Origin: an uncultured Eubacteriales bacterium
GTDB taxonomy: Bacteria > Bacillota > Clostridia > Oscillospirales > CAG-272
Assembly (NCBI GenBank): GCA_900554225.1
Contig: USGH01000001.1
Location: 1-47,796 of the forward strand
Reading direction: 5' to 3'
DNA length: 47,796 nucleotides
Shown: piece after piece, positions 1 to 28,553 of the stretch
How the letters are laid out: each line of letters begins with the position of its first letter
How positions within the stretch are numbered: the first letter of the stretch is position 1
Translations under genes and position numbers: made by a program
Notes under the pieces: model-generated
What the model saw: only the letters and a program-made list of their open reading frames with translations
The model's database searches: none
What the model was told of the DNA's origin: nothing

Positions 1-779
1 CGGCTGCGGTATATAAGGAGGAGTGGCAGAGCGGCGATCCGGGAGATGTGGTATACGACCTGCGTGTGGCTTGTCCGGGACCGAATCCGGTGTCCGGGTA
101 TCTCCGTATGCCGCGCAATGCAGCCGCACGTTCCCTGCCGATTGTGGTGCTGTACATGGGATACAACGTGACCGCCGCGCAGGTGCCGAACAAAGGAAAC
201 GCGATTCAGCTCTGTATCAACCAGCAGGGCGAACCGAACGGACAGAGTGCGGCATATTACGCGCAGCTTTTGGCAACGAAATATGCGAATTTCGGCTTTG
301 ACGACGCGGAAAACCGCGATCCGGATACGGTATTCTTCAAGTATATGGTGCTGCGCGCGCTTCAGGCTGTCCGGTACTGTATGACGCTGCCGGAGTGGGA
401 TGGGGTTCACGTGAAGGTATGCGGCGGCAGTATGGGCGGATTTCAGGCGATCCAGGCGGCGGCGCACGAGGCGCGTGTGACAGAGGTGGACATAGCGATT
501 CCGTGGCTGTGCGATCTGCGCGCGATCCAGTCGGGCAGACTGGGCGGATGGCGGCCTGCGCCTGCTGCGGGACTCGATTACTACGATACGGTGTGCGCAT
601 CGACCCGTGTTCTCTGCCCGGTGGAGATCACGGCGGGTCTGGGGGATTATGTATGCCCGCCCTCCGGCGTGACCGCGCTCTATCACGCCCTGCCGGGTCA
701 TGTGAAGCTCCACTTCCTGCAAAATCGCACCCATCCCTATACGGCGCCGGAATACGACACGTATACGATGGAAAAGTAA
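1..779 (+). CDS. Acetyl xylan esterase / cephalosporin-C deacetylase-like alpha/beta hydrolase (CE7-like), 5'-partial at window edge
   Basis: The track ORF 48..779 starts at an internal GTG, and the same frame (phase from nt 3) stays open to the left edge. It has a GxSxG nucleophile elbow (VCGGSMGGFQAI) and an AXE1-like layout (PIVVLYMGYN ... NRTHPY). Confidence 0.7.
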   Translation, partial: AAVYKEEWQSGDPGDVVYDLRVACPGPNPVSGYLRMPRNAAARSLPIVVLYMGYNVTAAQVPNKGNAIQLCINQQGEPNGQSAAYYAQLLATKYANFGFDDAENRDPDTVFFKYMVLRALQAVRYCMTLPEWDGVHVKVCGGSMGGFQAIQAAAHEARVTEVDIAIPWLCDLRAIQSGRLGGWRPAPAAGLDYYDTVCASTRVLCPVEITAGLGDYVCPPSGVTALYHALPGHVKLHFLQNRTHPYTAPEYDTYTMEK

Positions 780-7373: not shown

Positions 7374-9989
7374 TCAGTGCTGATGCTTGATCAGACCGCA
7401 GGCCTTGGAAAATTCCATGACGGCAAGCGGCGCGAGGATCAGTGCCAGTCCGATGCAGTATGCCTGCCACGGGAGAAGTACCAGTCCGAATGCCACGCCG
7501 ATCGGGGTAAAGAGAACGAGGCATACAAGAAGGATCGACAGGAGGGCTGCGCTGTTCAGCTTCCTGTTCGTGAACACGCCGATCTTGAACAGCGAATGCT
7601 CCGAGCGCATATTGTACGCCTGGATCACCTGCGACAGCGCGAGCACCATGAAGGCAAGCGTCTGACCGGCAGCGAGCGTTCCGCCATAGGCTTCACCGAT
7701 CATAAACGCGGCGAGAGAAAGCGCACCGAACATAAATCCCTGCAAGACGATCCGCAGCCCGAAGCCGTGCGCGAACATACTCTCCGATTTCGGCCGCGGC
7801 TTTCTGTCCATGACATCCGCCTCCACCGCCTCCATACCGAGCGCGATCGCCGGGAGACTGTCCGTCACCAGGTTGATCCAGAGTAGCTGCATGGAGAGCA
7901 GAGGCGTTTTGTGCCACAGCATCATCGCGGTGAATACCGTCAGTACCTCGCCGATATTCGTACCGAGCAGATACCCAACGACCTTGCGGATGTTGGCGTA
8001 GATGCCGCGCCCTTCCCGTACCGCATCGACGATCGTTGCAAAATTGTCGTCCGTCAGCGTCATATCGGCGGCTCCCTTGGCGACGTCTGTACCCGTAATG
8101 CCCATCGCGCATCCGATATCGGCAGCCTTGAGCGCAGGCGCGTCATTGACACCGTCGCCGGTCATCGATACCACCTGTCCCTTCCGCTGCCATGCCTTGA
8201 CGATGCGGATTTTGTTTTCCGGCGATACACGGGCGTAGACGGCGATATGCTCCACGGCACCGTCAAGCTCCGTATCCGTCATCGCGTCCAGCTCCGCGCC
8301 GGTGATGGCACGGTCGTTCTCGGTCAGAATCCCAAGCTCCCGGGCAATTGCGGAGGCTGTCACCACATGGTCGCCTGTGATCATCACCGGCTTGATCCCG
8401 GCGCGGCGGCATACGGCAACCGCTTCCTTTGCTTCCGGACGGGGCGGATCGATCATGCCGACCAGACCCGCAAATGTCAGACCGGATTCCAGCGATGCGG
8501 AGGTGACCTCGGTCGGGATCTCGTCGATCACCTTATATCCAATGGCGAGCACCCGCAGTGCGTCCGCACTCATCTCCTCCGTGATTCTGGCGGCTTTGTC
8601 GAGATTGCCGGCGACGCAGCGTTTCGCCATCACGTCAAAGGCACCCTTGACGATCACGACGTTTTTGTCGTCCATCCGGCAGACCACGCTCATGAGCTTC
8701 CGGTCGGAGTCAAACGGCAGCTCCGCAAGACGGGGATAGAGACGGCTCAATTCCTCCTTCGGCATACCGTTTTTGTGCGCGGCGAGAACGATTGCGGTCT
8801 CTGTCGGGTCGCCGATGTGCGTCTCCTCTGTCCCGTGGAAGGTCACGGAGCCGTCGCAGCACAGACAGCCCATGCGCAGCAGATTCCGGACCCGTTCGTC
8901 CGATTCTGTCGTGACCGCTTCCGGTGCGTCGTCGCCGTCCACGAAGGTTTTCACAAGGGTCATGCGGTTCTGCGTCAGCGTGCCGGTTTTGTCCGAGCAG
9001 ATGATGGATGCGCTGCCGAGAGTCTCCACTGCGGGCAGACGGCGGATCAGCGCGTTTTTCTGCACCATCCGCTGTACGCCGATGGAAAGCACGATCGTGA
9101 CGATCACGGGCAGTCCCTCCGGAATCGCGGATACGGCAAGGGATACGGCGGTCATGAAGATCTCCAGCGGCGGGATGTCGTTCACCAGTCCGACCACGAA
9201 GATCACGGCACAAGCGACCAGAGCCAGCGCGCCGAGATATTTCCCGAGTTGCGCGAGCTTTTCCTGCAAGGGGGTCTGTGTGTCGGATTCGTCGGCGAGC
9301 AGATTGGCGATCCTGCCCATTTCGGTGTCCATTCCGGTTGCGGTGACCACGGCGACAGCGGTGCCATACGTGATGCTGCATCCGGAGAAGAGCATATTCG
9401 ACCGATCTCCAAGCGGTGCCTTCTCCTCAACCTCGGTATCCGCGTCCTTATCCGAGGGTACGGATTCGCCGGTCAGCGCGGATTCCTCACTTTTCAGCCG
9501 GACCGCGTGCAGGATTCGTGCGTCTGCCGGGATGAAATCGCCCGCTTCCAGCCGTAGAATATCGCCCGGGACCAGATTTGCCGCGTCGATGACGATCTCT
9601 TTCCCGTCCCGGAGCACTCTCGCGTGCGGTGCGGACATATTCTTCAGTGCGTCCAGGGCTTTTTCTGCCTTGCTTTCCTGCATCATGCCCATGACGGCGT
9701 TGCAGACCACGATGGCGAGAATGAGCGCGGGTTCAAAAAAGCCCTTGGGATCTCCCTCCGCGCAGGCGACCACGAACGATACGATGGCAGCGGCGATGAG
9801 GATGAGGATCATGGCGTCCTTGAACTGTTCGAGAAAGCGCTGCAGGTTCGTTTTTTTCTTTTTCTCACGGAGCTTGTTTTGCCCGTATTTTGTCAGGCGG
9901 TTCGCTGCTTCCGCGGACGAAAGACCCGTCGTCGGATCGGTTTGCAGCGCGGCTATGACATCCTCTCTGGATGATGCGTGATAGAGCAT
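7374..9989 (-). CDS. Cation-translocating P-type ATPase, type IIA (Ca2+-ATPase, SERCA/PMCA-like)
   Basis: Motifs DKTGTLT, TGDGVNDAPALK, the TM4 motif AIPEGLP and a TM6 NLVTDSLPAIALG motif typical of Ca2+ pumps. 871 aa. Confidence 0.9.
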   Translation of the reverse strand: MLYHASSREDVIAALQTDPTTGLSSAEAANRLTKYGQNKLREKKKKTNLQRFLEQFKDAMILILIAAAIVSFVVACAEGDPKGFFEPALILAIVVCNAVMGMMQESKAEKALDALKNMSAPHARVLRDGKEIVIDAANLVPGDILRLEAGDFIPADARILHAVRLKSEESALTGESVPSDKDADTEVEEKAPLGDRSNMLFSGCSITYGTAVAVVTATGMDTEMGRIANLLADESDTQTPLQEKLAQLGKYLGALALVACAVIFVVGLVNDIPPLEIFMTAVSLAVSAIPEGLPVIVTIVLSIGVQRMVQKNALIRRLPAVETLGSASIICSDKTGTLTQNRMTLVKTFVDGDDAPEAVTTESDERVRNLLRMGCLCCDGSVTFHGTEETHIGDPTETAIVLAAHKNGMPKEELSRLYPRLAELPFDSDRKLMSVVCRMDDKNVVIVKGAFDVMAKRCVAGNLDKAARITEEMSADALRVLAIGYKVIDEIPTEVTSASLESGLTFAGLVGMIDPPRPEAKEAVAVCRRAGIKPVMITGDHVVTASAIARELGILTENDRAITGAELDAMTDTELDGAVEHIAVYARVSPENKIRIVKAWQRKGQVVSMTGDGVNDAPALKAADIGCAMGITGTDVAKGAADMTLTDDNFATIVDAVREGRGIYANIRKVVGYLLGTNIGEVLTVFTAMMLWHKTPLLSMQLLWINLVTDSLPAIALGMEAVEADVMDRKPRPKSESMFAHGFGLRIVLQGFMFGALSLAAFMIGEAYGGTLAAGQTLAFMVLALSQVIQAYNMRSEHSLFKIGVFTNRKLNSAALLSILLVCLVLFTPIGVAFGLVLLPWQAYCIGLALILAPLAVMEFSKACGLIKHQH

Positions 9990-15989: not shown

Positions 15990-16191
15990 CATCGCTTTCC
16001 TCCGCGTTTTGTCAATATCGGACAGTATACCATACCGTGTACGGAATGTCAAGACAGACCGAACCGGCAGAAAAATCCGATTTGTCCCGTAATTTGTCCC
16101 ATTCCTATTGAAATTGGTAAAATTTATGGTATACTATAGCAAAGGAAATCGGTATCTGTCCACCAAACGGACAAACGACAAGGAGGAAATT

Positions 16192-16848
16192 ATGTTATTT
16201 GAAAATGGCGACCGCATCGTATTTACCGGAGACTCCACCACCGACAACGGACGGGGCAGACCGGTAGGCGAGGGACTGTGGGATGGCGTCGGCAGCGGCT
16301 ATGTGCGCGTGATCGAGAACATCCTGAATGTGGTATATCCGGAACGGCTGTACTGGATCTCCAATACCGGCGTAAGCGGCAATACGACCCGCGACCTGCA
16401 CGATCGTTGGCAGAACGACGTCATGGCACTCAAGCCCGACTGGGTCAGCGTGATGATCGGCGTGAACGACATCTGGCGCAGATTCGACTGCCCGGCGATC
16501 ACCTCTTCGCACGTATATGCCGCGGAATATAAGGATCTTCTCTCCAAGATGATGGAGCGCACGCTGCCCACCGTCAAGGGCATGATCCTGCTCTCCCCCT
16601 ACTACATCGAATCGAACCGCGAGGACAGTATGCGTATGGCGGTCGATGAATACATCGGCATCTGCTCGGACGTGGCGAAGAAATACAACACCGTGTTCGT
16701 CAACCTCCAGCGCGCCTTTGACGATTATCTCGTGTACCGCCACTCCTCCTACATCGCGTGGGACAGAGTCCATCCCGGTCCGATCGGCTCCACCATCATC
16801 GCCCGCGAATTTCTGAAGGCGGTGGGGATCGACCGTTCGTTCCTGTAA
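16192..16848 (+). CDS. SGNH/GDSL family hydrolase
   Basis: Block I IVFTGDSTTDNG, block III GVNDIW, block V DRVHPGP. Start re-picked at MLFENGD with an AAGGAGG RBS. Confidence 0.85.
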   Translation: MLFENGDRIVFTGDSTTDNGRGRPVGEGLWDGVGSGYVRVIENILNVVYPERLYWISNTGVSGNTTRDLHDRWQNDVMALKPDWVSVMIGVNDIWRRFDCPAITSSHVYAAEYKDLLSKMMERTLPTVKGMILLSPYYIESNREDSMRMAVDEYIGICSDVAKKYNTVFVNLQRAFDDYLVYRHSSYIAWDRVHPGPIGSTIIAREFLKAVGIDRSFL

Positions 16849-16860
16849 GGCGGTGCGGCA

Positions 16861-17700
16861 ATGGTGAAATTTGGTTGCTGTCTCCCGGGCGGATCGTTTA
16901 TGCCGGAGGGTGTCGCGGAGGTACCGCAGTCCCCGGCGGATTCCCTTGTCGCGAAGTGCCGCTACATCCTTGAGACCGGATTTGACTTCACGGAGGTCGC
17001 GGGCGGGATGCTTGTCGGACTGGACGACGCGGGCTGGAGAATGGTCTTGTCCGAGAATGAAAAAAGCTCCCTTGGACTGTACGCGGCAAACAGTCTCTTT
17101 CCTAAGGAATTGAAAATGGGCGATCCGACAGCGGATCGGGATGCGCAAAAGGCGTATATCCAAAAGCTCGTCGATCGGTTCGTGCCGCTGGGGATCCGCT
17201 ACGCGGTATTCGGCAGCGGCGTCGCAAGAAGCATCCCGGACGGCGTATCGCGGGCAGACGGCATTGCGGCACTCCGCCGCTTCATGGGCGATTTCGCGGA
17301 CTGCGCCTATTCCCGCGGCGTCACACTGGTGATCGAGCCGTTGCGCAAAAAGGAAACCAACGTCTATGTCACGGTTCCGGAAACCGCCGCGGAGGTGCGT
17401 ACCCTGGCAAATCCCGGGATCCGTCTTTTGTGCGACGCGTTCCATATGGCGGAGGAGGGGACCCCGGCGGACGCGGTGCTCGCGGCGGGAGAGCTGATCC
17501 GGCACTGTCATATGGCGGAGGCACCGGATCGCACCTGTCCCGGCAAATATACCACCGGAGATCCGCAGTACAACCGGGATTTCGCGCACTGCCTGAACCG
17601 GATCGGGTATACGGGCGGTGTGTCGGCGGAATGCGGCTTTGACGATTTCAGGACGGATGTGCCGCAGATCCTCGCGTACCTGCGGGAGATTTTCGCGTAA
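16861..17700 (+). CDS. Sugar phosphate isomerase/epimerase (xylose-isomerase-like TIM barrel) family protein
   Basis: 279 aa with AP-endonuclease-2/TIM-barrel family features (VIEPLRKKETN ... CDAFHMAEEG ... GGVSAECGF). Assigned by family resemblance only. Confidence 0.7.
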   Translation: MVKFGCCLPGGSFMPEGVAEVPQSPADSLVAKCRYILETGFDFTEVAGGMLVGLDDAGWRMVLSENEKSSLGLYAANSLFPKELKMGDPTADRDAQKAYIQKLVDRFVPLGIRYAVFGSGVARSIPDGVSRADGIAALRRFMGDFADCAYSRGVTLVIEPLRKKETNVYVTVPETAAEVRTLANPGIRLLCDAFHMAEEGTPADAVLAAGELIRHCHMAEAPDRTCPGKYTTGDPQYNRDFAHCLNRIGYTGGVSAECGFDDFRTDVPQILAYLREIFA

Positions 17701-17716
17701 ATTCGAGGGATATACG

Positions 17717-18757
17717 ATGGATAAGATTCTCTATACGGCAAAAACAGCCCTGTGGGAGGATCCGGTACGCTTCTCCGGTACGCTTCCCGACGGCTGCAAC
17801 GCGCTGATGACCGAGGACGGCAGGGCATTCCCGGCACAGAATACAGAAAATGGCGTGACGGCGATTGTGACCTGTGCGGCGGACGAGGTGCTGACTCTCC
17901 TCCCCGGAAGGGCGGATTTTCCGAAAATGCACCTGACGACGGGTACGGATTGTCTGGCGATCGAGCGGTGCGGTGCGGTGATCGGCGGGTATTACTGGGA
18001 TCATGCGATCTGGAAACCGTATTTCGGACCGGTTTGCGACGATGCGGGGCACCCGTTCACCCGGATCGATTTTTCGGCGCAGGAGCATCCGCACCACCGT
18101 TCCGTCTATATAGCGGTCGGTGACGTAAACGGCGTGGACGCATGGAACGAACCGGCAGACTGCGGCATTGTGCGGGTCGAAGGGCTGGAGAACGTGGTCT
18201 GCGGTGCGGCATTTACGTCCTTCACAGCGCACAATCTCTGGACGGATCACGCGGAAAAGCCCCTTCTGCGCGAGACGACGACGTATACGCTGTACAACCA
18301 GTCCGATGCGTGCCGGATGCTCGATATTGCGGTGACGTTCACGGCGGATTTTGGTGAGGTGGTGTTCGGCGCGACCAAGGAAGCGGGACCGCTGGGGATC
18401 CGGATGCGGGATGAGCTGCGTGCGGACAAGGGAACCGGGCTGATCACCAACGCCCGCGGCGAAAAAACGGAGGCGGAATGCTGGGGTCGCGAGGCAGAGT
18501 GGTGCGATTATACCGGGACAATGCCGTTAGGCACGATGGGGATCGCGGCATTCGACCATCCGGACAACGAACGGTACCCGACTGCGTGGCACGTCCGGGA
18601 TTACGGCTTGTTTGCGGCGAACAACCTCTACTTCAAGGGCGGTCTGACGATCCACGGCGGCGACAGTCTGACCTATCGGTTCCGCATCCTCTTCCATCGT
18701 GCGGAGATGACGGCAGACGAGCTCGCGGCAAAATACGCGGAATACATCGGAAAATGA
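17717..18757 (+). CDS. PmoA-like / DUF6807 family protein (function unknown)
   Basis: HPHHRSVYIAVGDVNGVDAWNE ... FGATKEAGPLGIRM ... AAFDHPDNERYPTAWHVRDYGLFAANN is the typical DUF6807 pattern as I recall it. Start re-picked at MDKILY (ATG at 17717). Confidence 0.65.
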   Translation: MDKILYTAKTALWEDPVRFSGTLPDGCNALMTEDGRAFPAQNTENGVTAIVTCAADEVLTLLPGRADFPKMHLTTGTDCLAIERCGAVIGGYYWDHAIWKPYFGPVCDDAGHPFTRIDFSAQEHPHHRSVYIAVGDVNGVDAWNEPADCGIVRVEGLENVVCGAAFTSFTAHNLWTDHAEKPLLRETTTYTLYNQSDACRMLDIAVTFTADFGEVVFGATKEAGPLGIRMRDELRADKGTGLITNARGEKTEAECWGREAEWCDYTGTMPLGTMGIAAFDHPDNERYPTAWHVRDYGLFAANNLYFKGGLTIHGGDSLTYRFRILFHRAEMTADELAAKYAEYIGK

Positions 18758-19084: not shown

Positions 19085-20587
19085 ATGAAACGTAGGATAT
19101 TCACGCTGCTGCTCTGTGCTCTTCTTGTGGCACCGACGCTCCTTTCCTGCTCCGGCGGGGAAACCAAGGATACCGAAAACGATACCTCCGCTGCCGACAG
19201 CACGACCGAAACCGTGGAAGAGACGGAAACGCTGTCCGATTATGAGATGCGCCAGCTGATCTCCGATGATCTTGAGGATACCGATTTCGGCGGGCGGGAT
19301 TTCCGTGTGCTGACCACCGCGCATGATACCTACGATGCGGTGACGTTCGAGATCGTGGCGGAGGAGCTGACCGGAGACGCATGCAACGACGCGGTATACA
19401 ACCGGAATCTGGAGATCGAGAACCGCTTCAACACCAAGGTCACGTGCAATACGGAAAAGGAACCGTTCAAGGTCATCAAGACTGCCGTGACTGCCGGGAC
19501 GGACGACTACGATCTCGTTGGCACCTACAATTTCCAGGTCTACCATCTGATTTCCGCAGAGGCGGTCATGAACTGGCTGGAGGTTCCGCACGTCAATCTG
19601 GAGAAGCCATGGCACAATGCACTCGCCAACCAGAACGCGACGATCAACAACCGTCTCTACGCCATCTGCTCCGACCTTTCGATCACCTCCATGACCTACA
19701 CCTACGCCACCTTCTTCAACATCGAGATGATGGAAGACTACGGCTACAGTGCGGACGATCTGTACACCCTTGTGCGCGACGGCAAGTGGACGATCGACAA
19801 GCTGTCCGAAATGGTTGCAGGGATGTACAAGGACGTCAACGGCGACGGCAAGGCGGACAAGGAGGACATTTCCGGCTCCGGCAATCACATCACCAATCCC
19901 GCGGATGTATGGCTGACCGCGTTTGACCAGCCGCTGTTCACCATGAACGACGACAACACCTATACGATCAACTTCATGAGCGAAAAAACGACCGCGATCA
20001 TTGAGAAGCTCGTCGATTTCCACTACAACAATCCGGGTGTATACCTGCCGGCGAACCAGTATGACGAGCAGACGTATTTCCTGAACGGTCAATTCGCAAT
20101 GGCTCCCCTCCGCTTCCATTGCGCCTATACGAAGCTGCGCGACATGGAGGATCCGTATTCCATGCTCCCGTATCCGAAGTGGGATGAGGCGCAGAGCGCG
20201 TATTACACCAACGCGGACGACAAATTCACGGCGTTTATGATTCCGCTGACGGCATACAACAACATCGATTTTGTCGGTACGATCTTTGAGGCACTGTGCG
20301 CCATCAGCTATAAGAAGGTCTATCCGGAGTATTACGACGTCGCGCTCAAGGGCAAGTACGCCACCGATTCCAATACCGCGGAGATGATCGATCTCATCAT
20401 GGCGGGCCGTAACTTTGACTTCACGTTCCAGTTTGGCGAAACCTACTTCCAGCGGCTGCCGTATATGATCCGCGAGCTGATCTCTGCCAAGAACACCAAT
20501 CTCGCCTCCAAGTACGATACCGCCGCCAAAAAGCTCTACACCCAGATCGACGAGAAGCTCCTGCCGCTCTACGGTGTGGAAAAATAA
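19085..20587 (+). CDS. Extracellular solute-binding lipoprotein (large ABC-type SBP, LplA-like), orphan
   Basis: Lipoprotein signal MKRRIFTLLLCALLVAPTLLSC|SGG. About 500 aa. Clear paralog of the 22725..24191 product (shared LTGD..NDAVY.RNL..E.RFN.K, TAVTAG.D, P.PKWDEAQ..YYT, YDVALK.KY). No permease or ATPase genes nearby. Confidence 0.8.
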   Translation: MKRRIFTLLLCALLVAPTLLSCSGGETKDTENDTSAADSTTETVEETETLSDYEMRQLISDDLEDTDFGGRDFRVLTTAHDTYDAVTFEIVAEELTGDACNDAVYNRNLEIENRFNTKVTCNTEKEPFKVIKTAVTAGTDDYDLVGTYNFQVYHLISAEAVMNWLEVPHVNLEKPWHNALANQNATINNRLYAICSDLSITSMTYTYATFFNIEMMEDYGYSADDLYTLVRDGKWTIDKLSEMVAGMYKDVNGDGKADKEDISGSGNHITNPADVWLTAFDQPLFTMNDDNTYTINFMSEKTTAIIEKLVDFHYNNPGVYLPANQYDEQTYFLNGQFAMAPLRFHCAYTKLRDMEDPYSMLPYPKWDEAQSAYYTNADDKFTAFMIPLTAYNNIDFVGTIFEALCAISYKKVYPEYYDVALKGKYATDSNTAEMIDLIMAGRNFDFTFQFGETYFQRLPYMIRELISAKNTNLASKYDTAAKKLYTQIDEKLLPLYGVEK

Positions 20588-22556: not shown

Positions 22557-22640
22557 AAACGGAAGGGAGGTGATAGGGGAAATACCTCCAATATTTTTGC
22601 AAAACGGCGTGGTAAGATGCATAAATACCCCATTTTTCTC

Positions 22641-22669
22641 TTGCATTTTTCGAAGATATATGCTATACT
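22641..22669 (+). promoter_or_regulatory. Sigma-A promoter (TTGCAT-17-TATACT) for solute-binding lipoprotein 2
   Basis: ctcTTGCATttttcgaagatatatgcTATACTg, about 55 nt upstream of the ATG at 22725. Confidence 0.55.
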
Positions 22670-22724
22670 GACCATAGCATTTCTGCATCATAACGAAAAA
22701 ATTTTAGAAAGGGATACTGTACCT

Positions 22725-24191
22725 ATGAAAATGAAGAAATGGGTTTGGCTTGTGCTGTTTGCCATGCTGCTGACCGGCTGCTCACAGACCAAGGAAAACG
22801 AGACAGGCAACGAGACGACGGCGGATACCTCTGCGGAGACAGAAACGGTAGCAGAGACGGAAACGGAGATCTCCGACGATCTGCCCGATGTGACCTTTGA
22901 CGGTCGTGAATTCCGTACCTATACGCGGGACTGCTGTGAGGGTGTACACGTCAACGGTCTGTACATCGAGGATCTGACCGGGGACGTAGTAAACGACGCC
23001 GTATACACGCGCAATCTGACCGTGGAGGAACGGTTCAATGTGAAGATCGTTGCACCGATCACGGGAGCGGACGGAGACTGCACGGCACTCAACACAGCGG
23101 TCACCGCCGGAGACGACATTTGCGAGGTCGCGGACTGGCACTATAAGCATCTCGGCGACAGCGCGGCAAAGGGGTATTTCGTCGATATGCACTCTATCGG
23201 TGTGCTGGGCATGGATAAGCCGTGGTGGTACCAGAACGTAAACGACGCGTATTCCGTGGGTGGTCACTACTACATCATGGTCGGCATGTACGACACGGAC
23301 AACTTCCTCGACAACATCTGTATGTACTTCAATAAGAATCTCCTGGAGGTCACGCTTCCGGAGGAGGATCTGTACACCGTGGTCAAGGAAGGCAAGTGGA
23401 CGGCGGACAAATTCATGTCTCTTGCCGCGCAGTCTGCGGTCGATCTGGATGGCGACGGCACCATGGATCCGACAAAGGATCAGTTTGCATATGGACAGGC
23501 GAACGGCTATTCCTTCGCGTTCCAGTTCGCATGGCAGCAGCCCGTTACGGAGCGCGATGCCGACGGCTATCCGGTGACGTGCATCAATACGAGCCACATG
23601 ACCGATATGGTCGAAAAGCTGCACAGTATGCTGTTTGAAAATTCCGAGAACATCATCGACGAATCCGACGAGCAGGCCGTCAACGCCTTCAAGGAGGATC
23701 GCGAAATGTTCCAGCTGCAAGCCCTCAAGGCAGCATCGATCAACTTCCGCGATATGGATTCCGACTTTGGTATCCTTCCCATGCCGAAATGGGATGAAGC
23801 ACAGGACAAGTATTACACGCACGCAACCGCGCATACCTCTGCCGTAGCGATTCCGGTGACGAAAGACAACGACGGATTTGTATTCGCCGAAACGATCCTG
23901 GAGGCACTGGCAGCAGAAGGATATAAGCAGGTTCGTCCCGCCATCTATGATGTGGCTCTGAAGTCGAAGTACACGCGCGACGAGGTCTCCTATGAGATGA
24001 TCGACATCGTGGTCCATGGCAGAACCGCAGATTTCGCGGAGATTTTCGACAATTGGGGACTGACCTACACCCTAGACCATCTGACCCGTAAGAAATCGGC
24101 GGATTGGGCGTCCTTCTACCAGAGCCAGACCAAAACGCAGGAAAAGGCAGTCGGCGACGCAGTGGCTCTGTTCATGGGTCTGGACAAATAA
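22725..24191 (+). CDS. Extracellular solute-binding lipoprotein (paralog of 19085..20587), orphan
   Basis: Lipoprotein signal MKMKKWVWLVLFAMLLTGC|SQT. Start re-picked at 22725. Homology blocks shared with SBP 1 are listed at that feature. Confidence 0.8.
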   Translation: MKMKKWVWLVLFAMLLTGCSQTKENETGNETTADTSAETETVAETETEISDDLPDVTFDGREFRTYTRDCCEGVHVNGLYIEDLTGDVVNDAVYTRNLTVEERFNVKIVAPITGADGDCTALNTAVTAGDDICEVADWHYKHLGDSAAKGYFVDMHSIGVLGMDKPWWYQNVNDAYSVGGHYYIMVGMYDTDNFLDNICMYFNKNLLEVTLPEEDLYTVVKEGKWTADKFMSLAAQSAVDLDGDGTMDPTKDQFAYGQANGYSFAFQFAWQQPVTERDADGYPVTCINTSHMTDMVEKLHSMLFENSENIIDESDEQAVNAFKEDREMFQLQALKAASINFRDMDSDFGILPMPKWDEAQDKYYTHATAHTSAVAIPVTKDNDGFVFAETILEALAAEGYKQVRPAIYDVALKSKYTRDEVSYEMIDIVVHGRTADFAEIFDNWGLTYTLDHLTRKKSADWASFYQSQTKTQEKAVGDAVALFMGLDK

Positions 24192-24481: not shown

Positions 24482-24554
24482 AGCGGATTACGGGGCTCGA
24501 ACCCGCCACCTCGACCTTGGCAAGGTCGCGCTCTACCAAATGAGCTAAATCCGC
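24482..24554 (-). tRNA. tRNA-Gly (anticodon GCC)
   Basis: Minus strand: GCGGATT-TA-GCTC-ATTTGGTA-GAGC-G-CGACC-TTGCCAA-GGTCG-AGGTG-GCGGG-TTCGAGC-CCCGT-AATCCGC-T. The cloverleaf folds cleanly. Confidence 0.9.
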
Positions 24555-24593
24555 ATTTTGGAGACTTGGGTGACAACGGTCTACCAAAGATCA

Positions 24594-24667
24594 CGACCCA
24601 GACGGGGCTCGAACCCGTGACCTCTAGCGTGACAGGCTAGCGCTCTAACCAACTGAGCTACTGGGCC
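24594..24667 (-). tRNA. tRNA-Asp (anticodon GTC)
   Basis: Minus strand: GGCCCAG-TA-GCTC-AGTTGGTTA-GAGC-G-CTAGC-CTGTCAC-GCTAG-AGGTC-ACGGG-TTCGAGC-CCCGT-CTGGGTC-G. Confidence 0.9.
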
Positions 24668-24691
24668 ATTCCGTACCATATTTGATACGGT

Positions 24692-24767
24692 TGGTGGAAA
24701 CAATAGGGCTCGAACCTATGACCCTCTGCTTGTAAGGCAGATGCTCTCCCAGCTGAGCTATGCTTCC
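24692..24767 (-). tRNA. tRNA-Val (anticodon TAC), CCA encoded
   Basis: Minus strand: GGAAGCA-TA-GCTC-AGCTGGGA-GAGC-A-TCTGC-CTTACAA-GCAGA-GGGTC-ATAGG-TTCGAGC-CCTAT-TGTTTCC-A-CCA. Confidence 0.9.
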
Positions 24768-24859
24768 ATCTGTTGTGAAGAACTTCCAAGAAACCCACTT
24801 GAAACTCACATTTGTTTGTTTGTTTCGTTTGTTTTTCGGTTGCGCTCTCAACGTATAAG

Positions 24860-24888
24860 ATTATACCACGCCGCGCGGGATTTGTCAA
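24860..24888 (-). promoter_or_regulatory. Perfect-consensus sigma-A promoter (TTGACA-17-TATAAT, TGG-extended) of the Val-Asp-Gly tRNA operon
   Basis: Minus strand: tatTTGACAaatcccgcgcggcgtggTATAATctt, about 90 nt upstream of tRNA-Val(TAC). Confidence 0.75.
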
Positions 24889-25057: not shown

Positions 25058-25651
25058 CTACTTTTCGGCGAAAAGGATCCCCATCTCCAGGCGCACCTCA
25101 TTCCGGACAATGTCGCGGTTGGAATAGCAGATCCGGTCAAAACCGATGAGGGATAATCCCTCGTGCCGATAGAAATCGACGGCGTTCACGTTGCAGGACT
25201 GCGTTTCCAAAATCAACGCACGGCATCCGGAGGTTTGCGCGCGTTCTTTGGCATGAGACAAGAGCGTATGTCCATAGCCGCGCTTATGATATGCAGGCGA
25301 TACCCACAGCTCCGTGACGCGCATCCGGTGCGACCATTCCTCCGCGCAGATCTCGATGGCTCCGATCAGCTCTCCCGCGTCCGAGAAGATTCCGTATGCC
25401 TCTGCCTTCTCCCAATACGGTTCGTAGAGCTTGTCCGGAAAATCGTACTCCTCCGTTGTGTGCGTGATTGGTGCGGCAAGGGCGGTTTTGTGGATGCCGA
25501 TCTGCCAGCCGTCCGCGGATTCTGTGAAATCCACCGCATAGCAGCCGTCTGTGGTGTATCCAATCGGCAGAATATATCCCGTATACTCCTCCGGCGGCAG
25601 ATATACTACCGCGCGTCCGTCCCTGGTGTATGCCGCTGCTTTATATTCCAT
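25058..25651 (-). CDS. GNAT family N-acetyltransferase (streptothricin-acetyltransferase-like architecture)
   Basis: VTELWVSPAYHKRGYGHTLLSHAKERAQTSGCRALILETQSCNVNAVDFYRHEGLSLIGFD contains the Q/RxxGxG/A acetyl-CoA motif. Start re-picked at MEYKAAAY with a GGAAGGGAG RBS. Sits 32 nt after the activase stop. Confidence 0.8.
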   Translation of the reverse strand: MEYKAAAYTRDGRAVVYLPPEEYTGYILPIGYTTDGCYAVDFTESADGWQIGIHKTALAAPITHTTEEYDFPDKLYEPYWEKAEAYGIFSDAGELIGAIEICAEEWSHRMRVTELWVSPAYHKRGYGHTLLSHAKERAQTSGCRALILETQSCNVNAVDFYRHEGLSLIGFDRICYSNRDIVRNEVRLEMGILFAEK

Positions 25652-25683
25652 ACAAATGCTCCCTTCCTGTTCCGCCAAAAGAA

Positions 25684-26466
25684 TCATAGACCATTTTCCG
25701 CCCCGCGCTCCAGGGGATAGGCGCGTCCAAGCTGTCGGTATTTTGCGCCGGCAAGCCGATTGTACGGGAGATATTCCACCTCTCCTGCCTTTGTCATGGC
25801 ACGGATGGCGGATACATTTTCCTCCGTGTCCGTGTATCCGGGAATGAGCGGTGTGCGCAGACGATACGGGATTCCGGACTGCCGCAGCCATGCGATATTC
25901 TCTAAAATGGGCGCGTTCGATACCCCCGTGTACCTGCGGTGCAGCGCATCGTCTGCCAGCTTGAGATCGCAGTAGATAAAATCGCAGCGCACGGCAATTT
26001 TTTGAAAAAGCTCCGGCGGCGCATATCCGGCAGTCTCTATGGCGCGATGGATCCCGTAGGCACCGAGACGATCGAGCAATTCTGCGGCAAAATCCGGCTG
26101 GGACAGCACTTCACCGCCGGAGAGTGTGACGCCGCCGCCGCTCATATTGTATAGCTCCTTGTCCCGCGCCAGCTTTTCTGCCAGCTTCTCTGCGTCCCAG
26201 CTCTCCCCGGCAACGCGCAAAAGCCCTTTTGGACAGGCGTGGAGACAGCGATGGTATGGCGCGCAATCCGCATGGGCGCAGGGGATACGGCACCTGTCAC
26301 AGTGGATGCAGCCGGATTTTTCCATCAGCTCGGGCTGCGGCGACTGTCCCTCCGGATTGTGACACCAGAGGCAGCGCATCGGGCAGCCCTTGAAAAAGAC
26401 CGTGGTCCGTACACCGCCGCCGTCATGAACCGCGAATTCCTTGATGTCGAAGAGGATTCCCTGCAT
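25684..26466 (-). CDS. Glycyl-radical enzyme activating protein (radical SAM)
   Basis: FFKGCPMRCLWCHNPE (CxxxCxxC), ferredoxin-like insert CIHCDRCRIPC ... CLHACP, and GGGVTLSGGE. The start sits 1 nt from the GRE stop. Confidence 0.9.
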   Translation of the reverse strand: MQGILFDIKEFAVHDGGGVRTTVFFKGCPMRCLWCHNPEGQSPQPELMEKSGCIHCDRCRIPCAHADCAPYHRCLHACPKGLLRVAGESWDAEKLAEKLARDKELYNMSGGGVTLSGGEVLSQPDFAAELLDRLGAYGIHRAIETAGYAPPELFQKIAVRCDFIYCDLKLADDALHRRYTGVSNAPILENIAWLRQSGIPYRLRTPLIPGYTDTEENVSAIRAMTKAGEVEYLPYNRLAGAKYRQLGRAYPLERGAENGL

Positions 26467-26467
26467 A

Positions 26468-28453
26468 TCAAAGGGCGTATTCGTGCCGTGCGATCACGTG
26501 ATTCTGATACGGCTTATCCAGCTCCACGAAATACGCGCTCCAGCCCCAGATCCGCCCGATGAGATGCGCGTATTTTTCCGGATGCGCCTGTGCGGCAAGG
26601 AGCGTTTCCCGGCTTACGGCATTGAGCTGCAGCTGATGACCGCCGCGCACGATATAGTACCGGATCAGTGCCGATAGCTTTTCCGCCGCGTCCTCCGCTG
26701 TAAATACGGATGCGTCAAATTCCAGTGTGAGCGGTCCGCCGTTGATGGTGCGCGTGAGATCGGGACCGGTGAAGCTGCGGATGACGGAAACAGGACCGCC
26801 CGTTTTCGCGAATAGGGAGGGGGAGTAGTTGGTCGCAAACGGTTCGCCGCGCCGTCTGCCGTCCGGGGATGCGCCAATTTCCGCAGCGTGCCACAGATAG
26901 TACATCGCCGAGCCGGTACCCGCGCGCCAGATCCCACCGCGGCAGTTTTTCCGTCCGGCAAGTGCAGCGGCAAAGGTGCCAAGTAAGAAATCCGCCCATT
27001 CCTCCGCGCTCTCTCCGTTTTCCGCCCCCATTTTCGGTGCCTCCACACGCAACAGCGGCAGGAGTTCCTCGTGCTTCGTGAAATCGCTGTCCACTGCTTC
27101 GCGGAGCGTTTGGGCAGAGCACCGCTTTTCGCAAAGAACGTACCGCTCCATAGCTGCCAGGGAATCCGCCGCCGTGGACAGCCCTGTGCCGTGGATGCCG
27201 AAATTGTTGTAGAGGGAGCCGCGGGAAATATCGCCGTCCGGGCAGTCGAAAAAGAGCGTGAGAAACGGAGCCGGGATGAACCACAGGTTGCGCACGGAGG
27301 AGGTGATCTCGTCGCAGCGGCACCCAATGGCAGAACGGACTGCCGATTGGAGCTCGGTTTTCGTCATGCCATCCCGGAAGGAGCCGTGGAGCACGGTGTC
27401 CACGATTTGCGGGAAGGAGAGCGCGGCAATGTTCGCAACGTCGCAGCCCTTCCCCGGCACGATGAACTCCCAGCAGGCCGCCACGCCATAGTTCACCGCA
27501 TCCTCATACCGATAGCCGAGCCGCGTGAGTCCCGGGATCACAACATCGTCGTTGGAGTACTGCGGGAATCCCATCCCGCGTGCGGTCAGTCGGCTGCCGG
27601 CGATGTACTGCTCCATCGGCGTATTCTTCGAGACACGCATATTGATTTTCGGATCGATCAGGAGATTCTCGCCGGATGCGCGCAGACAAAGCTCCGAAAA
27701 AGGGGAGAATACGTCCGCGCCGTTTTCATCGATCCCGCCAAGAACCATGGACTGCCCGTTGTCGCCCTGCTGTACGCCCGGATACATATCGGAATCCACG
27801 TTGAAGGACAGGAAGAAATCGCGCAGCAGGGACAGCAGCTCCTCATCGGTGTATCGATCCCTGTCTGCCTCGTAATACGGACGCATATACTTGTCAAACC
27901 GCCCGCACGTGACGTGATAAGTCCCCTCCAGCCAGATCGCGTAGTGGAGGATCCGGAAAAACTGGAGTGCTTCGCGCAGATTGCGTGCCGGATAGCGTGG
28001 AATCTGCATGAGGATTTCCGCCACGTCGTCCCTGCCCACGCGCACCGCCTCATCCCGGTACCGATCGGATAGCCGGAGCAGCGCGTCGATCTCCCGTCTG
28101 CCGTATTCGTTTGCTTCCTCCCGCACGGAAAGCAGCCCGCGCGAAAGGATCCGGGCATAATCCGGCGTGACGTTGGACATATAGCCAAGCTCGTGGATGA
28201 AATGCGTACCGGAGATCTCCGCCCATTCCGTCTCCGTGAAAAGAGGGGGCGCGTTGGCGGTCGTGCGCATAAAGACGATCTGCTGCCCGGGCAGGATGTG
28301 GGGAACCTGACGATCACAGAGAAGCGTGAACCGCTGTGTGATCCGCTCGATGGGGGACAGCCCCTCGCTTGCGTACAATGTCGCCAGATCGTCCGTTACA
28401 GCTGTACGATATGCCTTGTGCGCGCCGGACAGGATGTAATCGTAATACACCAT
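26468..28453 (-). CDS. Glycyl-radical enzyme, PFL2/dehydratase-like but unusually short (about 661 aa); substrate unknown
   Basis: C-terminal glycyl-radical signature HLIGRIWGWSAYFVELDKPYQNHVIARHEYAL (Gly codon 26543..26545). Cys loop NYGVAACWEFIVPGKG (Cys-x-Glu type). Start re-picked at MVYYDY (AGGAAG RBS); the track's upstream ATG lies inside the predicted -10 box. Confidence 0.85.
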   Translation of the reverse strand: MVYYDYILSGAHKAYRTAVTDDLATLYASEGLSPIERITQRFTLLCDRQVPHILPGQQIVFMRTTANAPPLFTETEWAEISGTHFIHELGYMSNVTPDYARILSRGLLSVREEANEYGRREIDALLRLSDRYRDEAVRVGRDDVAEILMQIPRYPARNLREALQFFRILHYAIWLEGTYHVTCGRFDKYMRPYYEADRDRYTDEELLSLLRDFFLSFNVDSDMYPGVQQGDNGQSMVLGGIDENGADVFSPFSELCLRASGENLLIDPKINMRVSKNTPMEQYIAGSRLTARGMGFPQYSNDDVVIPGLTRLGYRYEDAVNYGVAACWEFIVPGKGCDVANIAALSFPQIVDTVLHGSFRDGMTKTELQSAVRSAIGCRCDEITSSVRNLWFIPAPFLTLFFDCPDGDISRGSLYNNFGIHGTGLSTAADSLAAMERYVLCEKRCSAQTLREAVDSDFTKHEELLPLLRVEAPKMGAENGESAEEWADFLLGTFAAALAGRKNCRGGIWRAGTGSAMYYLWHAAEIGASPDGRRRGEPFATNYSPSLFAKTGGPVSVIRSFTGPDLTRTINGGPLTLEFDASVFTAEDAAEKLSALIRYYIVRGGHQLQLNAVSRETLLAAQAHPEKYAHLIGRIWGWSAYFVELDKPYQNHVIARHEYAL

Positions 28454-28483
28454 GGCAGCTTCCTTTCGTATCCGTATAATGGA

Positions 28484-28512
28484 TGTATACATTCAGAAAG
28501 ACTCTGATTCAA
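28484..28512 (-). promoter_or_regulatory. Sigma-A-type promoter (TTGAAT-17-TATACA) for the GRE cassette
   Basis: Minus strand: TTGAATcagagtctttctgaatgTATACA, about 30 nt upstream of the chosen GRE start. Confidence 0.5.
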
Positions 28513-28553
28513 GAGTGTTTTTGCGCAAAAAAAGCGTTCTATACGGCGCATCC

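Follow-up and report, generated by a model that had tools for sequence, protein, structure and literature searches.

Is a 661-amino-acid (aa) glycyl radical enzyme (GRE) an intact catalyst, and if it is, on what kind of substrate would it act? Glycyl radical chemistry in the gut touches the host in trimethylamine, p-cresol and H2S formation, in hydroxyproline use and in anhydro-sugar glycolysis. The question is raised here by a 47,796-nucleotide stretch of DNA, the whole of which we call the window (contig USGH01000001.1 of GenBank assembly GCA_900554225.1, from an uncultured Eubacteriales bacterium of the CAG-272 lineage). On its minus strand three closely packed genes lie at positions 25058-28512 and encode, in order of transcription, a GRE, a radical S-adenosylmethionine (SAM) activating enzyme (activase) and a GNAT-type acetyltransferase (Table 1). 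Our reading, which we hold with slightly more confidence than doubt, is that the GRE and activase form a functional system that performs radical C-O cleavage of the Cys-x-Glu (CXE) type on a sugar or sugar-derived polyol, and that the GNAT stands outside it.

The GRE open reading frame, which the initial annotation had picked out for its terminal glycyl radical signature, was found where it had been placed. It runs over 26468..28492 (minus strand) and gives 674 aa if read from an upstream ATG at 28492 or 661 aa if read from the ATG at 28453, and Pfam agrees in finding a PFL-like domain (E 3e-62) and a Gly_radical domain (PF01228, E 3e-17) in it. Because relatives are 655-667 aa long and the ribosome-binding site and start context are kept in L001-L003, three related loci at 88% identity or more, the ATG at 28453 is the predicted true start and the 674-aa reading is unlikely; the upstream ATG falls within the putative -10 hexamer (below). 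A search that covered 5.8 billion proteins found more than 120 GRE relatives at 58-98% identity, nearly all of 655-667 aa (the few shorter ones look fragmentary), and when one genome per species was scanned, 332 species were seen to carry them. For both the GRE and the activase, dN/dS comes to ~0.10 in comparison with the three closest loci, and an AlphaFold model of the GRE (pLDDT 86.3, pTM 0.89) is a complete GRE barrel. Could the short length nevertheless reflect an assembly or frameshift truncation, as the initial annotation had allowed? That candidate is ruled out, as the length is kept in at least 120 database relatives and in 80 genome loci. The constant length of relatives across 332 species, the low dN/dS and the full-barrel model together mean that the 661-aa protein is a genuine, intact GRE without truncation.

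The carriers are mainly metagenome-assembled genomes (MAGs) of Acutalibacteraceae, Oscillospiraceae and Lachnospiraceae from human, ruminant and bird guts. The exact window GRE sequence had no record in a look-up of public assemblies. Among the carriers seen, only Ructibacterium gallinarum DSM 107454 (locus L038) is cultured; there the gene caller split the region 8001-9980 into a 595-aa GRE and a 150-aa activase, possibly through a calling error or because of a frameshift.

To which GRE family does the protein belong? No characterised family was matched in NCBIfam, among PDB sequences, among PDB folds or in the June 2026 GRE review (PMC13450708). All NCBIfam scores are far below cutoff (TIGR01774, PFL2/glycerol dehydratase, 234 vs 678 bits; HypD 217 vs 1100, HpfG 212 vs 1000, PRK09983 192 vs 1109 and CutC 142 vs 1050 bits), and the best PDB sequence identities are 20-27%. 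The review treats six C-O eliminases, CutC, three C-S lyases, three isomerases, decarboxylases, X-succinate synthases and aminoacyl radical enzymes, and no short enzyme resembling the window GRE is among them; literature searches on the motifs RVWGF, RVWGW and RIWGW, and on GRE together with arabinofuranosidase or epimerase, returned nothing relevant. A profile of the window family scores highest for the B12-independent glycerol dehydratase (GDH, 331 bits), 1,2-propanediol dehydratase (PD, 301), HypD (293), CutC (291) and PflD (282), while the decarboxylases and succinate synthases reach about half the GDH score (HPAD and BSS ~152 bits) and pyruvate formate-lyase (PFL) lies outside the list of matches at E <= 1e-30. 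A Cys-x-Glu loop defines the GRE 1,2-eliminase/isomerase class (PMC13450708), and the window protein has one in Cys327-Trp328-Glu329. Sequence comparison thus supports the proposal of the initial annotation that this is an uncharacterised subfamily on the PFL2/eliminase side, with Cys-x-Glu rather than Cys-Cys; these searches found no characterised family of like length with the high identity that might have overturned it.

The sequence holds every part of the radical relay: the cluster motif of the activase, Gly637, Cys327 and Glu329. The codons previously assigned to the radical Gly and the loop Cys were both right, since Gly637 aligns with Gly763 and Cys327 with Cys433 of GDH. Among 40 family members Cys327-Trp328-Glu329 is invariant (the local loop reads A-A-C-W-E), as are W636, G637 and W638 in the Gly loop, whose fingerprint RVxG[FWY] is defined in PMC11528403. 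The activase begins, as had been described, 1 nt past the GRE stop (ATG at 26466; stop at 26468-26470), and its CX3CX2C motif, Cys-rich ferredoxin-like insert and above-cutoff score place it in TIGR02494. Ten Cys, the CX3CX2C triad and seven of the insert, are invariant among 54 activase relatives; an eighth insert Cys, found in 30 of the 54, is Leu82 in the window activase, which is ~40-50 aa shorter than eliminase-type activases, mostly inside the insert.

Where, then, was length lost from the GRE? Its model has Foldseek TM-scores of 0.82-0.88 at 19-24% identity to glycerol dehydratase, CutC, propanediol dehydratase, PflD, YbiW, HypD and others, every solved eliminase and isomerase GRE included (0.86-0.88 at 20-24% for glycerol dehydratase, CutC and PflD), and the ten-stranded alpha/beta barrel is recovered with TM-scores of 0.75-0.88 to all GRE structures listed. 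The protein had been judged more than 100 aa shorter than characterised members, and it is 126 aa shorter than GDH, mainly through internal losses. The description of this shortening as distributed holds in that several internal blocks are missing, but ~80% of the lost residues fall within the N-terminal helical third and 48 aa are in one block. The N-terminal helical region is the canonical GRE dimer interface (PMC13450708).

The shortness and the two Trp residues had been taken for oddities of this one protein. An exhaustive HMMER search over 1.84 billion cluster representatives gave 5463 matches with a continuous range of lengths from ~620 to 815 aa, and we aligned 105 full-length representatives (at 50% identity) with 14 family members and GDH; 98 representatives keep both Cys and Gly. 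Cys-Trp-Glu is common to 51 of these 98. Forty-eight have both Cys-Trp-Glu and a Trp before the radical Gly, with a median length of 688 aa, and they carry Asn at the position of GDH His164 in 45 cases and Asn at that of GDH Asp447 in 44. The 36 representatives with neither Trp have a median length of 775 aa, and 32 of them have His at the 164 position. In the clade an invariant G-D-[N/T]-G-Q loop replaces GDH GGYPMYQ, and Gly/Ala replace GDH Tyr640/Ser642. Both Trp substitutions are therefore real but, like the shortness, clade-wide hallmarks rather than peculiarities of the window gene, which by this alignment is a member of a large, deep, uncharacterised short-GRE clade with co-varying hallmarks. 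In public assemblies, short-GRE clusters hold 150-350 member sequences.

Some clade members (P0172, P0132, P0131, P0163, P0168 and P0169) have lost the radical Gly (e.g., VRLWSS, VCVRDW) or the catalytic Cys, and could be variants like the aminoacyl radical enzymes (AAREs) or decayed copies. The AAREs (Fu et al. 2024, PMC11528403) are likewise an uncharacterised eliminase-like branch, mostly from gut Eubacteriales MAGs and in varied contexts; unlike them the window GRE keeps the canonical Gly, Ser/Asp being found there in few distant clade members. Loci L053 and L076 each carry two GRE homologues, so paralogous copies are present in some genomes.

What do the neighbours of these GREs say about the substrate? 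The initial annotation had seen no substrate hint nearby, which is true of the window alone; the comparative context points to carbohydrate metabolism. Genes were called in 80 related genome loci (the window's own subfamily) by a codon-usage model that misses some membrane proteins, e.g., trkH, and their products were clustered. The activase is directly downstream of the GRE in 58 of the 80 and one gene further on in 11, with a DUF4867 cupin or SGNH esterase between (69 of 80 in total), and it adjoins the GRE in 65 of 82 loci from sister subfamilies; the conserved unit is GRE plus activase. Within ~8 kb of the own-subfamily GREs, as raw counts without a background rate, we found AraC-type regulators with a cupin sensor domain in 22 loci (18 of them divergent at position -1), GH36 in 17, DUF4867 in 10 (often between GRE and activase), SGNH esterase in 7 and GH3 in 6, as well as GH51, GH127, GH78, GH2, GH172, GH94-like enzymes, SASA esterases, FGGY kinases and xylose-isomerase-like TIM barrels. 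The DUF4867 proteins, metal-binding cupins of unknown activity, are tied to aldose/ketose and sulfoquinovose pathways (PMC11968277).

The sister subfamilies are 43-59% identical to the window GRE and share its pocket motifs (xN, YH, QQGDNGQS, AACWEF, xNI, GTGSAMY and VRVWGWSG). Their set comprises 84 loci, 80 metagenomic and four from exact-sequence look-ups, two of whose contigs are too short to inform. A sugar-porter MFS protein occurs in 38 of the 84, mostly directly downstream (TIGR00879, 321 vs cutoff 238 bits; closest model XylE), an aldose 1-epimerase in 23 and a GH51 or GH127 arabinofuranosidase in 23; GntR/LacI-type sugar regulators and CUT2-type sugar ABC components are also found, in several gene orders. 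The coherent signal is of a short-GRE clade wired to free-sugar uptake, anomerisation and plant side-chain glycosidases.

Two locus types may be described separately. In the human gut type L107-L125 (e.g., L112, 10001-12067 and flanks) a conserved operon has, in this order, a divergent GntR-type regulator, the activase, GRE, sugar-porter MFS, two GH51-like arabinofuranosidases and an aldose 1-epimerase; on the related contig L082 a TonB-dependent receptor suggests a Bacteroidota host. In L017, L048, L061 and L063 a long operon begins with the gene for a conserved 633-aa protein (~300-2230; cluster 18) that neither Pfam nor NCBIfam matches, and goes on to include two GH36-like genes, DUF4886, an AraC regulator, GRE and activase, to which L017 and L063 add GH63-like, GH94-like, beta-lactamase-fold, SASA and DUF4867 genes.

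Given this context of glycosidases, sugar porter and epimerase in the relatives' and sister loci, the most likely, if unproven, substrate is carbohydrate-derived: a sugar or a sugar-derived polyol that would be freed by glycoside hydrolases. From what is known of the family, the activase would cleave S-adenosylmethionine at its CX3CX2C cluster and take a hydrogen from Gly637 to leave a stable radical, which during turnover would move from Gly637 to Cys327. The Cys-x-Glu loop suggests that the Cys327 thiyl radical would then take a hydrogen from a hydroxyl-bearing carbon while Glu329 would deprotonate the hydroxyl of that carbon, and that the ketyl radical would expel the neighbouring O-linked group, either water or a ring/ether oxygen. 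Return of the hydrogen from Cys327 would yield either a deoxy-carbonyl product or a substrate isomer, so that the net reaction would be either a dehydration, as in GDH, PD and HypD, or a ring/ether C-O cleavage to an isomer, as in PflD and YbiW.

PflD and YbiW are a precedent for the second outcome. These sugar-phosphate isomerases (PDB 8id0, 8yjo, 8id7) cleave a C-O bond by radical chemistry in cyclic sugar derivatives (PMC13450708), and like the window family they have a CXE loop and are carbohydrate-linked (TM 0.86-0.88). They differ in being 765-810 aa long with ~21% identity to the window GRE and in the His that a YbiW-like structure keeps at the GDH-164 position; moreover, their substrates are phosphorylated and reached via PTS-type pathways, whereas in the sister loci the sugar porter is of the proton-symporter type and is joined by a mutarotase, which implies a free sugar.

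Several points weigh against this reading. The substrate, product and radical are all deduced, and the pocket assignments rest on alignment to GDH, whose leaving-group chemistry would not be simply transferable given the predicted loss of His164 and Asp447. In the window no sugar gene adjoins the GRE (its neighbours are trkH/trkA, mutY, the tRNA cluster and lipoproteins), and ~30 of the 80 own-subfamily loci are a bare GRE-activase pair. Genomes of this kind are rich in glycosidase genes, and the neighbour counts are raw ones. The transporter and epimerase signal comes from sister subfamilies whose 43-59% identity falls short of what usually goes with a conserved GRE function (PMC11528403), and many sister loci are near-duplicates, so that their counts overstate independence.

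A bolder form of the sugar proposal is that the clade with CWE and Trp-Gly-Trp is a new functional GRE class that acts directly on free, unphosphorylated monosaccharides; we regard this as possible but doubtful. If true, L-arabinose, galactose or a related sugar, imported by the porter and with its anomer set by the mutarotase, might for example be dehydrated or have its ring opened by radical chemistry, and this would be a radical entry into anaerobe sugar catabolism that is in no pathway map. The Trp pair that flanks the radical Gly and Cys, together with the Asn-for-His/Asp swap, would then mark a different radical relay and a different handling of the leaving group.

Might the protein instead be a compact glycerol or 1,2-propanediol dehydratase that makes an aldehyde from a small diol, e.g., glycerol freed from plant galactolipids by neighbouring esterases, GH36 and GH2? 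GDH (C. butyricum DhaB1, PDB 1r8w) and PD (5i2a, 9rco) are its top sequence, profile and fold matches, and they share with it the 10-stranded barrel, the Cys-x-Glu loop, the RVxG[FWY] Gly loop, a conserved His at or beside GDH His281/Ser282 and, next to the GRE gene, an activase that has a ferredoxin-like insert. SGNH/GDSL esterases, GH36 and GH2 recur near relatives, and in one sister locus an Fe-alcohol dehydrogenase lies directly upstream of the GRE (Fe-ADH - GRE - activase - NagB - NagA). However, identity to GDH is only ~27% over the alignment, with a score far below the family cutoff, and besides its shorter length (including the 48-aa deletion) and its Trp for Val in the Cys loop and for Ala before Gly, the window protein has lost the substrate contacts of GDH. 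Both His164 and Asp447 are Asn (Asn94 and Asn341; the N-terminal part of the alignment, which includes the 164 region, is bridged via intermediate sequences and hence less certain), the Tyr339 loop is replaced by QQGDNGQ, and Tyr640 and Ser642 are Gly and Ala. The swap of both GDH acids to Asn, as aligned, would show that leaving groups are handled differently from GDH; His180, Asp231 and the GDNGQ loop are candidates for this role. Residues 224-232, which overlap that loop, have pLDDT <50 and are the sole internal very-low-confidence stretch of the model. Window-family loci also differ in having no alcohol dehydrogenase or microcompartment genes: Fe-ADH is in 0 of the 80 own-subfamily loci, where microcompartment-shell and aldehyde dehydrogenase families are not among the frequent neighbours. 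We therefore consider a diol dehydratase unlikely. CutC and HypD, the other CXE-type 1,2-eliminases with similar profile scores and fold, are ~800 aa or longer and have contexts (microcompartments and proline metabolism, respectively) not seen at window-family loci; CutC has Asp at the GDH-164 position, and HypD has active-site Phe152 and His160 in that region (PMC6219649).

A smaller chance still, and a slim one, is that all three genes form one pathway in which the GRE acts on an amine-bearing substrate, e.g., an amino sugar, and the GNAT acetylates the substrate or product. The GNAT does start 32 nt past the activase stop (ATG at 25651), the spacing first given for it, on the same strand and with no terminator-like site called between, and is probably co-transcribed with the GRE and activase in this species; two sister loci have unrelated GNATs after the GRE, and another has NagA/NagB after it. 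The idea of a three-gene cassette nonetheless finds no support in the comparison, in which only the window and L001-L003 (4 of 81 loci) have the GNAT behind the activase. The GNATs of the two sister loci are not homologous to it beyond the fold (21% identity, E 0.005), and since few bacterial genes are commoner than those for GNATs, two or three chance neighbours in ~160 loci are expected. Its best matches are streptothricin-type resistance acetyltransferases, led in the PDB by the nourseothricin/streptothricin acetyltransferase 5c82 (E 5e-11, most of the protein length covered), yet it is far below the NCBIfam cutoffs (Sat2 45.6 vs 360, STAT 38.6 vs 420 bits) and no resistance function can be claimed. 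Because it is confined to the closest relatives, the sister-locus GNATs are unrelated and its best matches are resistance enzymes, the GNAT is most likely a syntenic neighbour, a bystander outside the system.

The cassette had also been credited with its own promoter. The hexamers TTGAAT-17-TATACA are there, but the match is weak, the consensus promoter scan did not call it for want of the final T in TATACA, and it is not conserved, lying with a T-rich run in a window-specific ~55-nt insertion between trkA and the GRE (28493-28550) that is not in L001 or L003 (7960-8000; only 25-40 nt). Read-through from trkH-trkA, or a promoter within trkA, is at least as likely. In Rfam there was no riboswitch or other element near the cassette, only three tRNAs.

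That the GRE is a decaying or non-catalytic relic, as its orphan-like context in the window and the few clade members without radical Gly or Cys might suggest, is barely credible, since its frame is intact, every family-invariant residue is kept, dN/dS is ~0.1, the activase is tightly coupled and relatives are in 332 species. The weakest alternative, a pyruvate or 2-ketoacid formate-lyase, would follow the source annotation of relatives ('pyruvate formate lyase family protein') and the Pfam PFL-like domain, and can be put aside almost entirely, as the loop is Cys-Trp-Glu with no Cys-Cys pair, the PFL equivalog TIGR01255 scores 42 vs a cutoff of 994 bits, and the alignment to E. coli PFL is limited to the C-terminal radical domain.

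Table 1. Features of the GRE locus (window positions) and blocks present in GDH but missing from the window GRE (GDH residue numbers).
Feature	Position	Strand	Size	Remarks
GRE gene	26468..28453	-	661 aa	start ATG 28453, ribosome-binding site GAAAGGAAG just before
Cys loop core Cys327-Trp328-Glu329	27467..27475	-		predicted thiyl radical site and catalytic base; aligns with GDH Cys433-Val434-Glu435; Cys327 codon 27473-27475
Glycyl radical motif Arg634-Ile-Trp636-Gly637-Trp638	26540..26554	-		fits RVxG[FWY]; aligns with GDH RVAG763Y; Gly637 codon 26543-26545
Asn94	28172..28174	-		at position of GDH general acid His164; multiple alignment bridged by intermediate sequences
Asn341	27431..27433	-		at position of GDH Asp447; alignment to GDH
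Invariant loop Gln228-Gln-Gly-Asp-Asn-Gly-Gln234	27752..27772	-		in place of GDH GGYPMYQ loop (Tyr339)
Radical-SAM activating enzyme gene	25684..26466	-	260 aa	TIGR02494, 256 bits vs cutoff 174
Activase CX3CX2C motif, Cys28, Cys32, Cys35	26362..26385	-		predicted SAM-cleaving [4Fe-4S] cluster site; invariant in 54/54 relatives
Activase compact ferredoxin-like insert C53x2C56x2C59x3C63x4C68x5C74x3C78	26233..26310	-		seven Cys
GNAT acetyltransferase gene	25058..25651	-	197 aa	Pfam PF00583
Promoter-like TTGAAT-17-TATACA	28484..28512	-		weak match; in window-specific insertion
Missing block, internal	GDH 93-140		48 aa	largest block
Missing block	GDH 188-207		20 aa	
Missing block	GDH 464-476		13 aa	
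Missing block, N-terminus	GDH 1-8 and 11-15		13 aa	
Missing block	GDH 232-242		11 aa	
Small gaps elsewhere			remainder of 126 aa	

The rest of the window may be summarised briefly. Transcriptionally upstream of the GRE are trkA, trkH, mutY and a polysaccharide deacetylase, and downstream are genes for tRNA-Val, tRNA-Asp and tRNA-Gly, then unclassified lipoproteins and DUF711. The tRNA cluster (anticodons tac, gtc and gcc, respectively; 24482-24888, minus strand) lies directly downstream of the GNAT and has a perfect sigma-70 promoter, TTGACA-17-TATAAT with a TG extension (24888-24860), and a strong terminator-like hairpin (24471-24443). The two lipoproteins (19127-20587 and 22617-24191, both plus strand; ~490-520 aa) had no Pfam, NCBIfam or PDB match and may be sugar-binding proteins of an unclassified sort; in 7 loci a homologue of the second (cluster 6) is encoded within a few genes of the GRE, including the distant L007, L008, L026, L044 and L070. 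About 8 kb from the GRE (16126-18757, plus strand) an SGNH/GDSL esterase, a xylose-isomerase-like TIM barrel and a DUF6807 protein stand in a row, and the first two of these families also recur beside the GRE in other genomes.

What does this locus mean for the GRE superfamily? Whole GRE clades are still unannotated (PMC13450708), and the existence of one more is conceptually unsurprising. The comparative context narrows the candidate substrates to sugars and sugar-derived polyols, and the locus is an entry to an abundant, structurally streamlined, signature-bearing and uncharacterised clade that is found mostly in fibre-degrading Clostridia of the gut and rumen.

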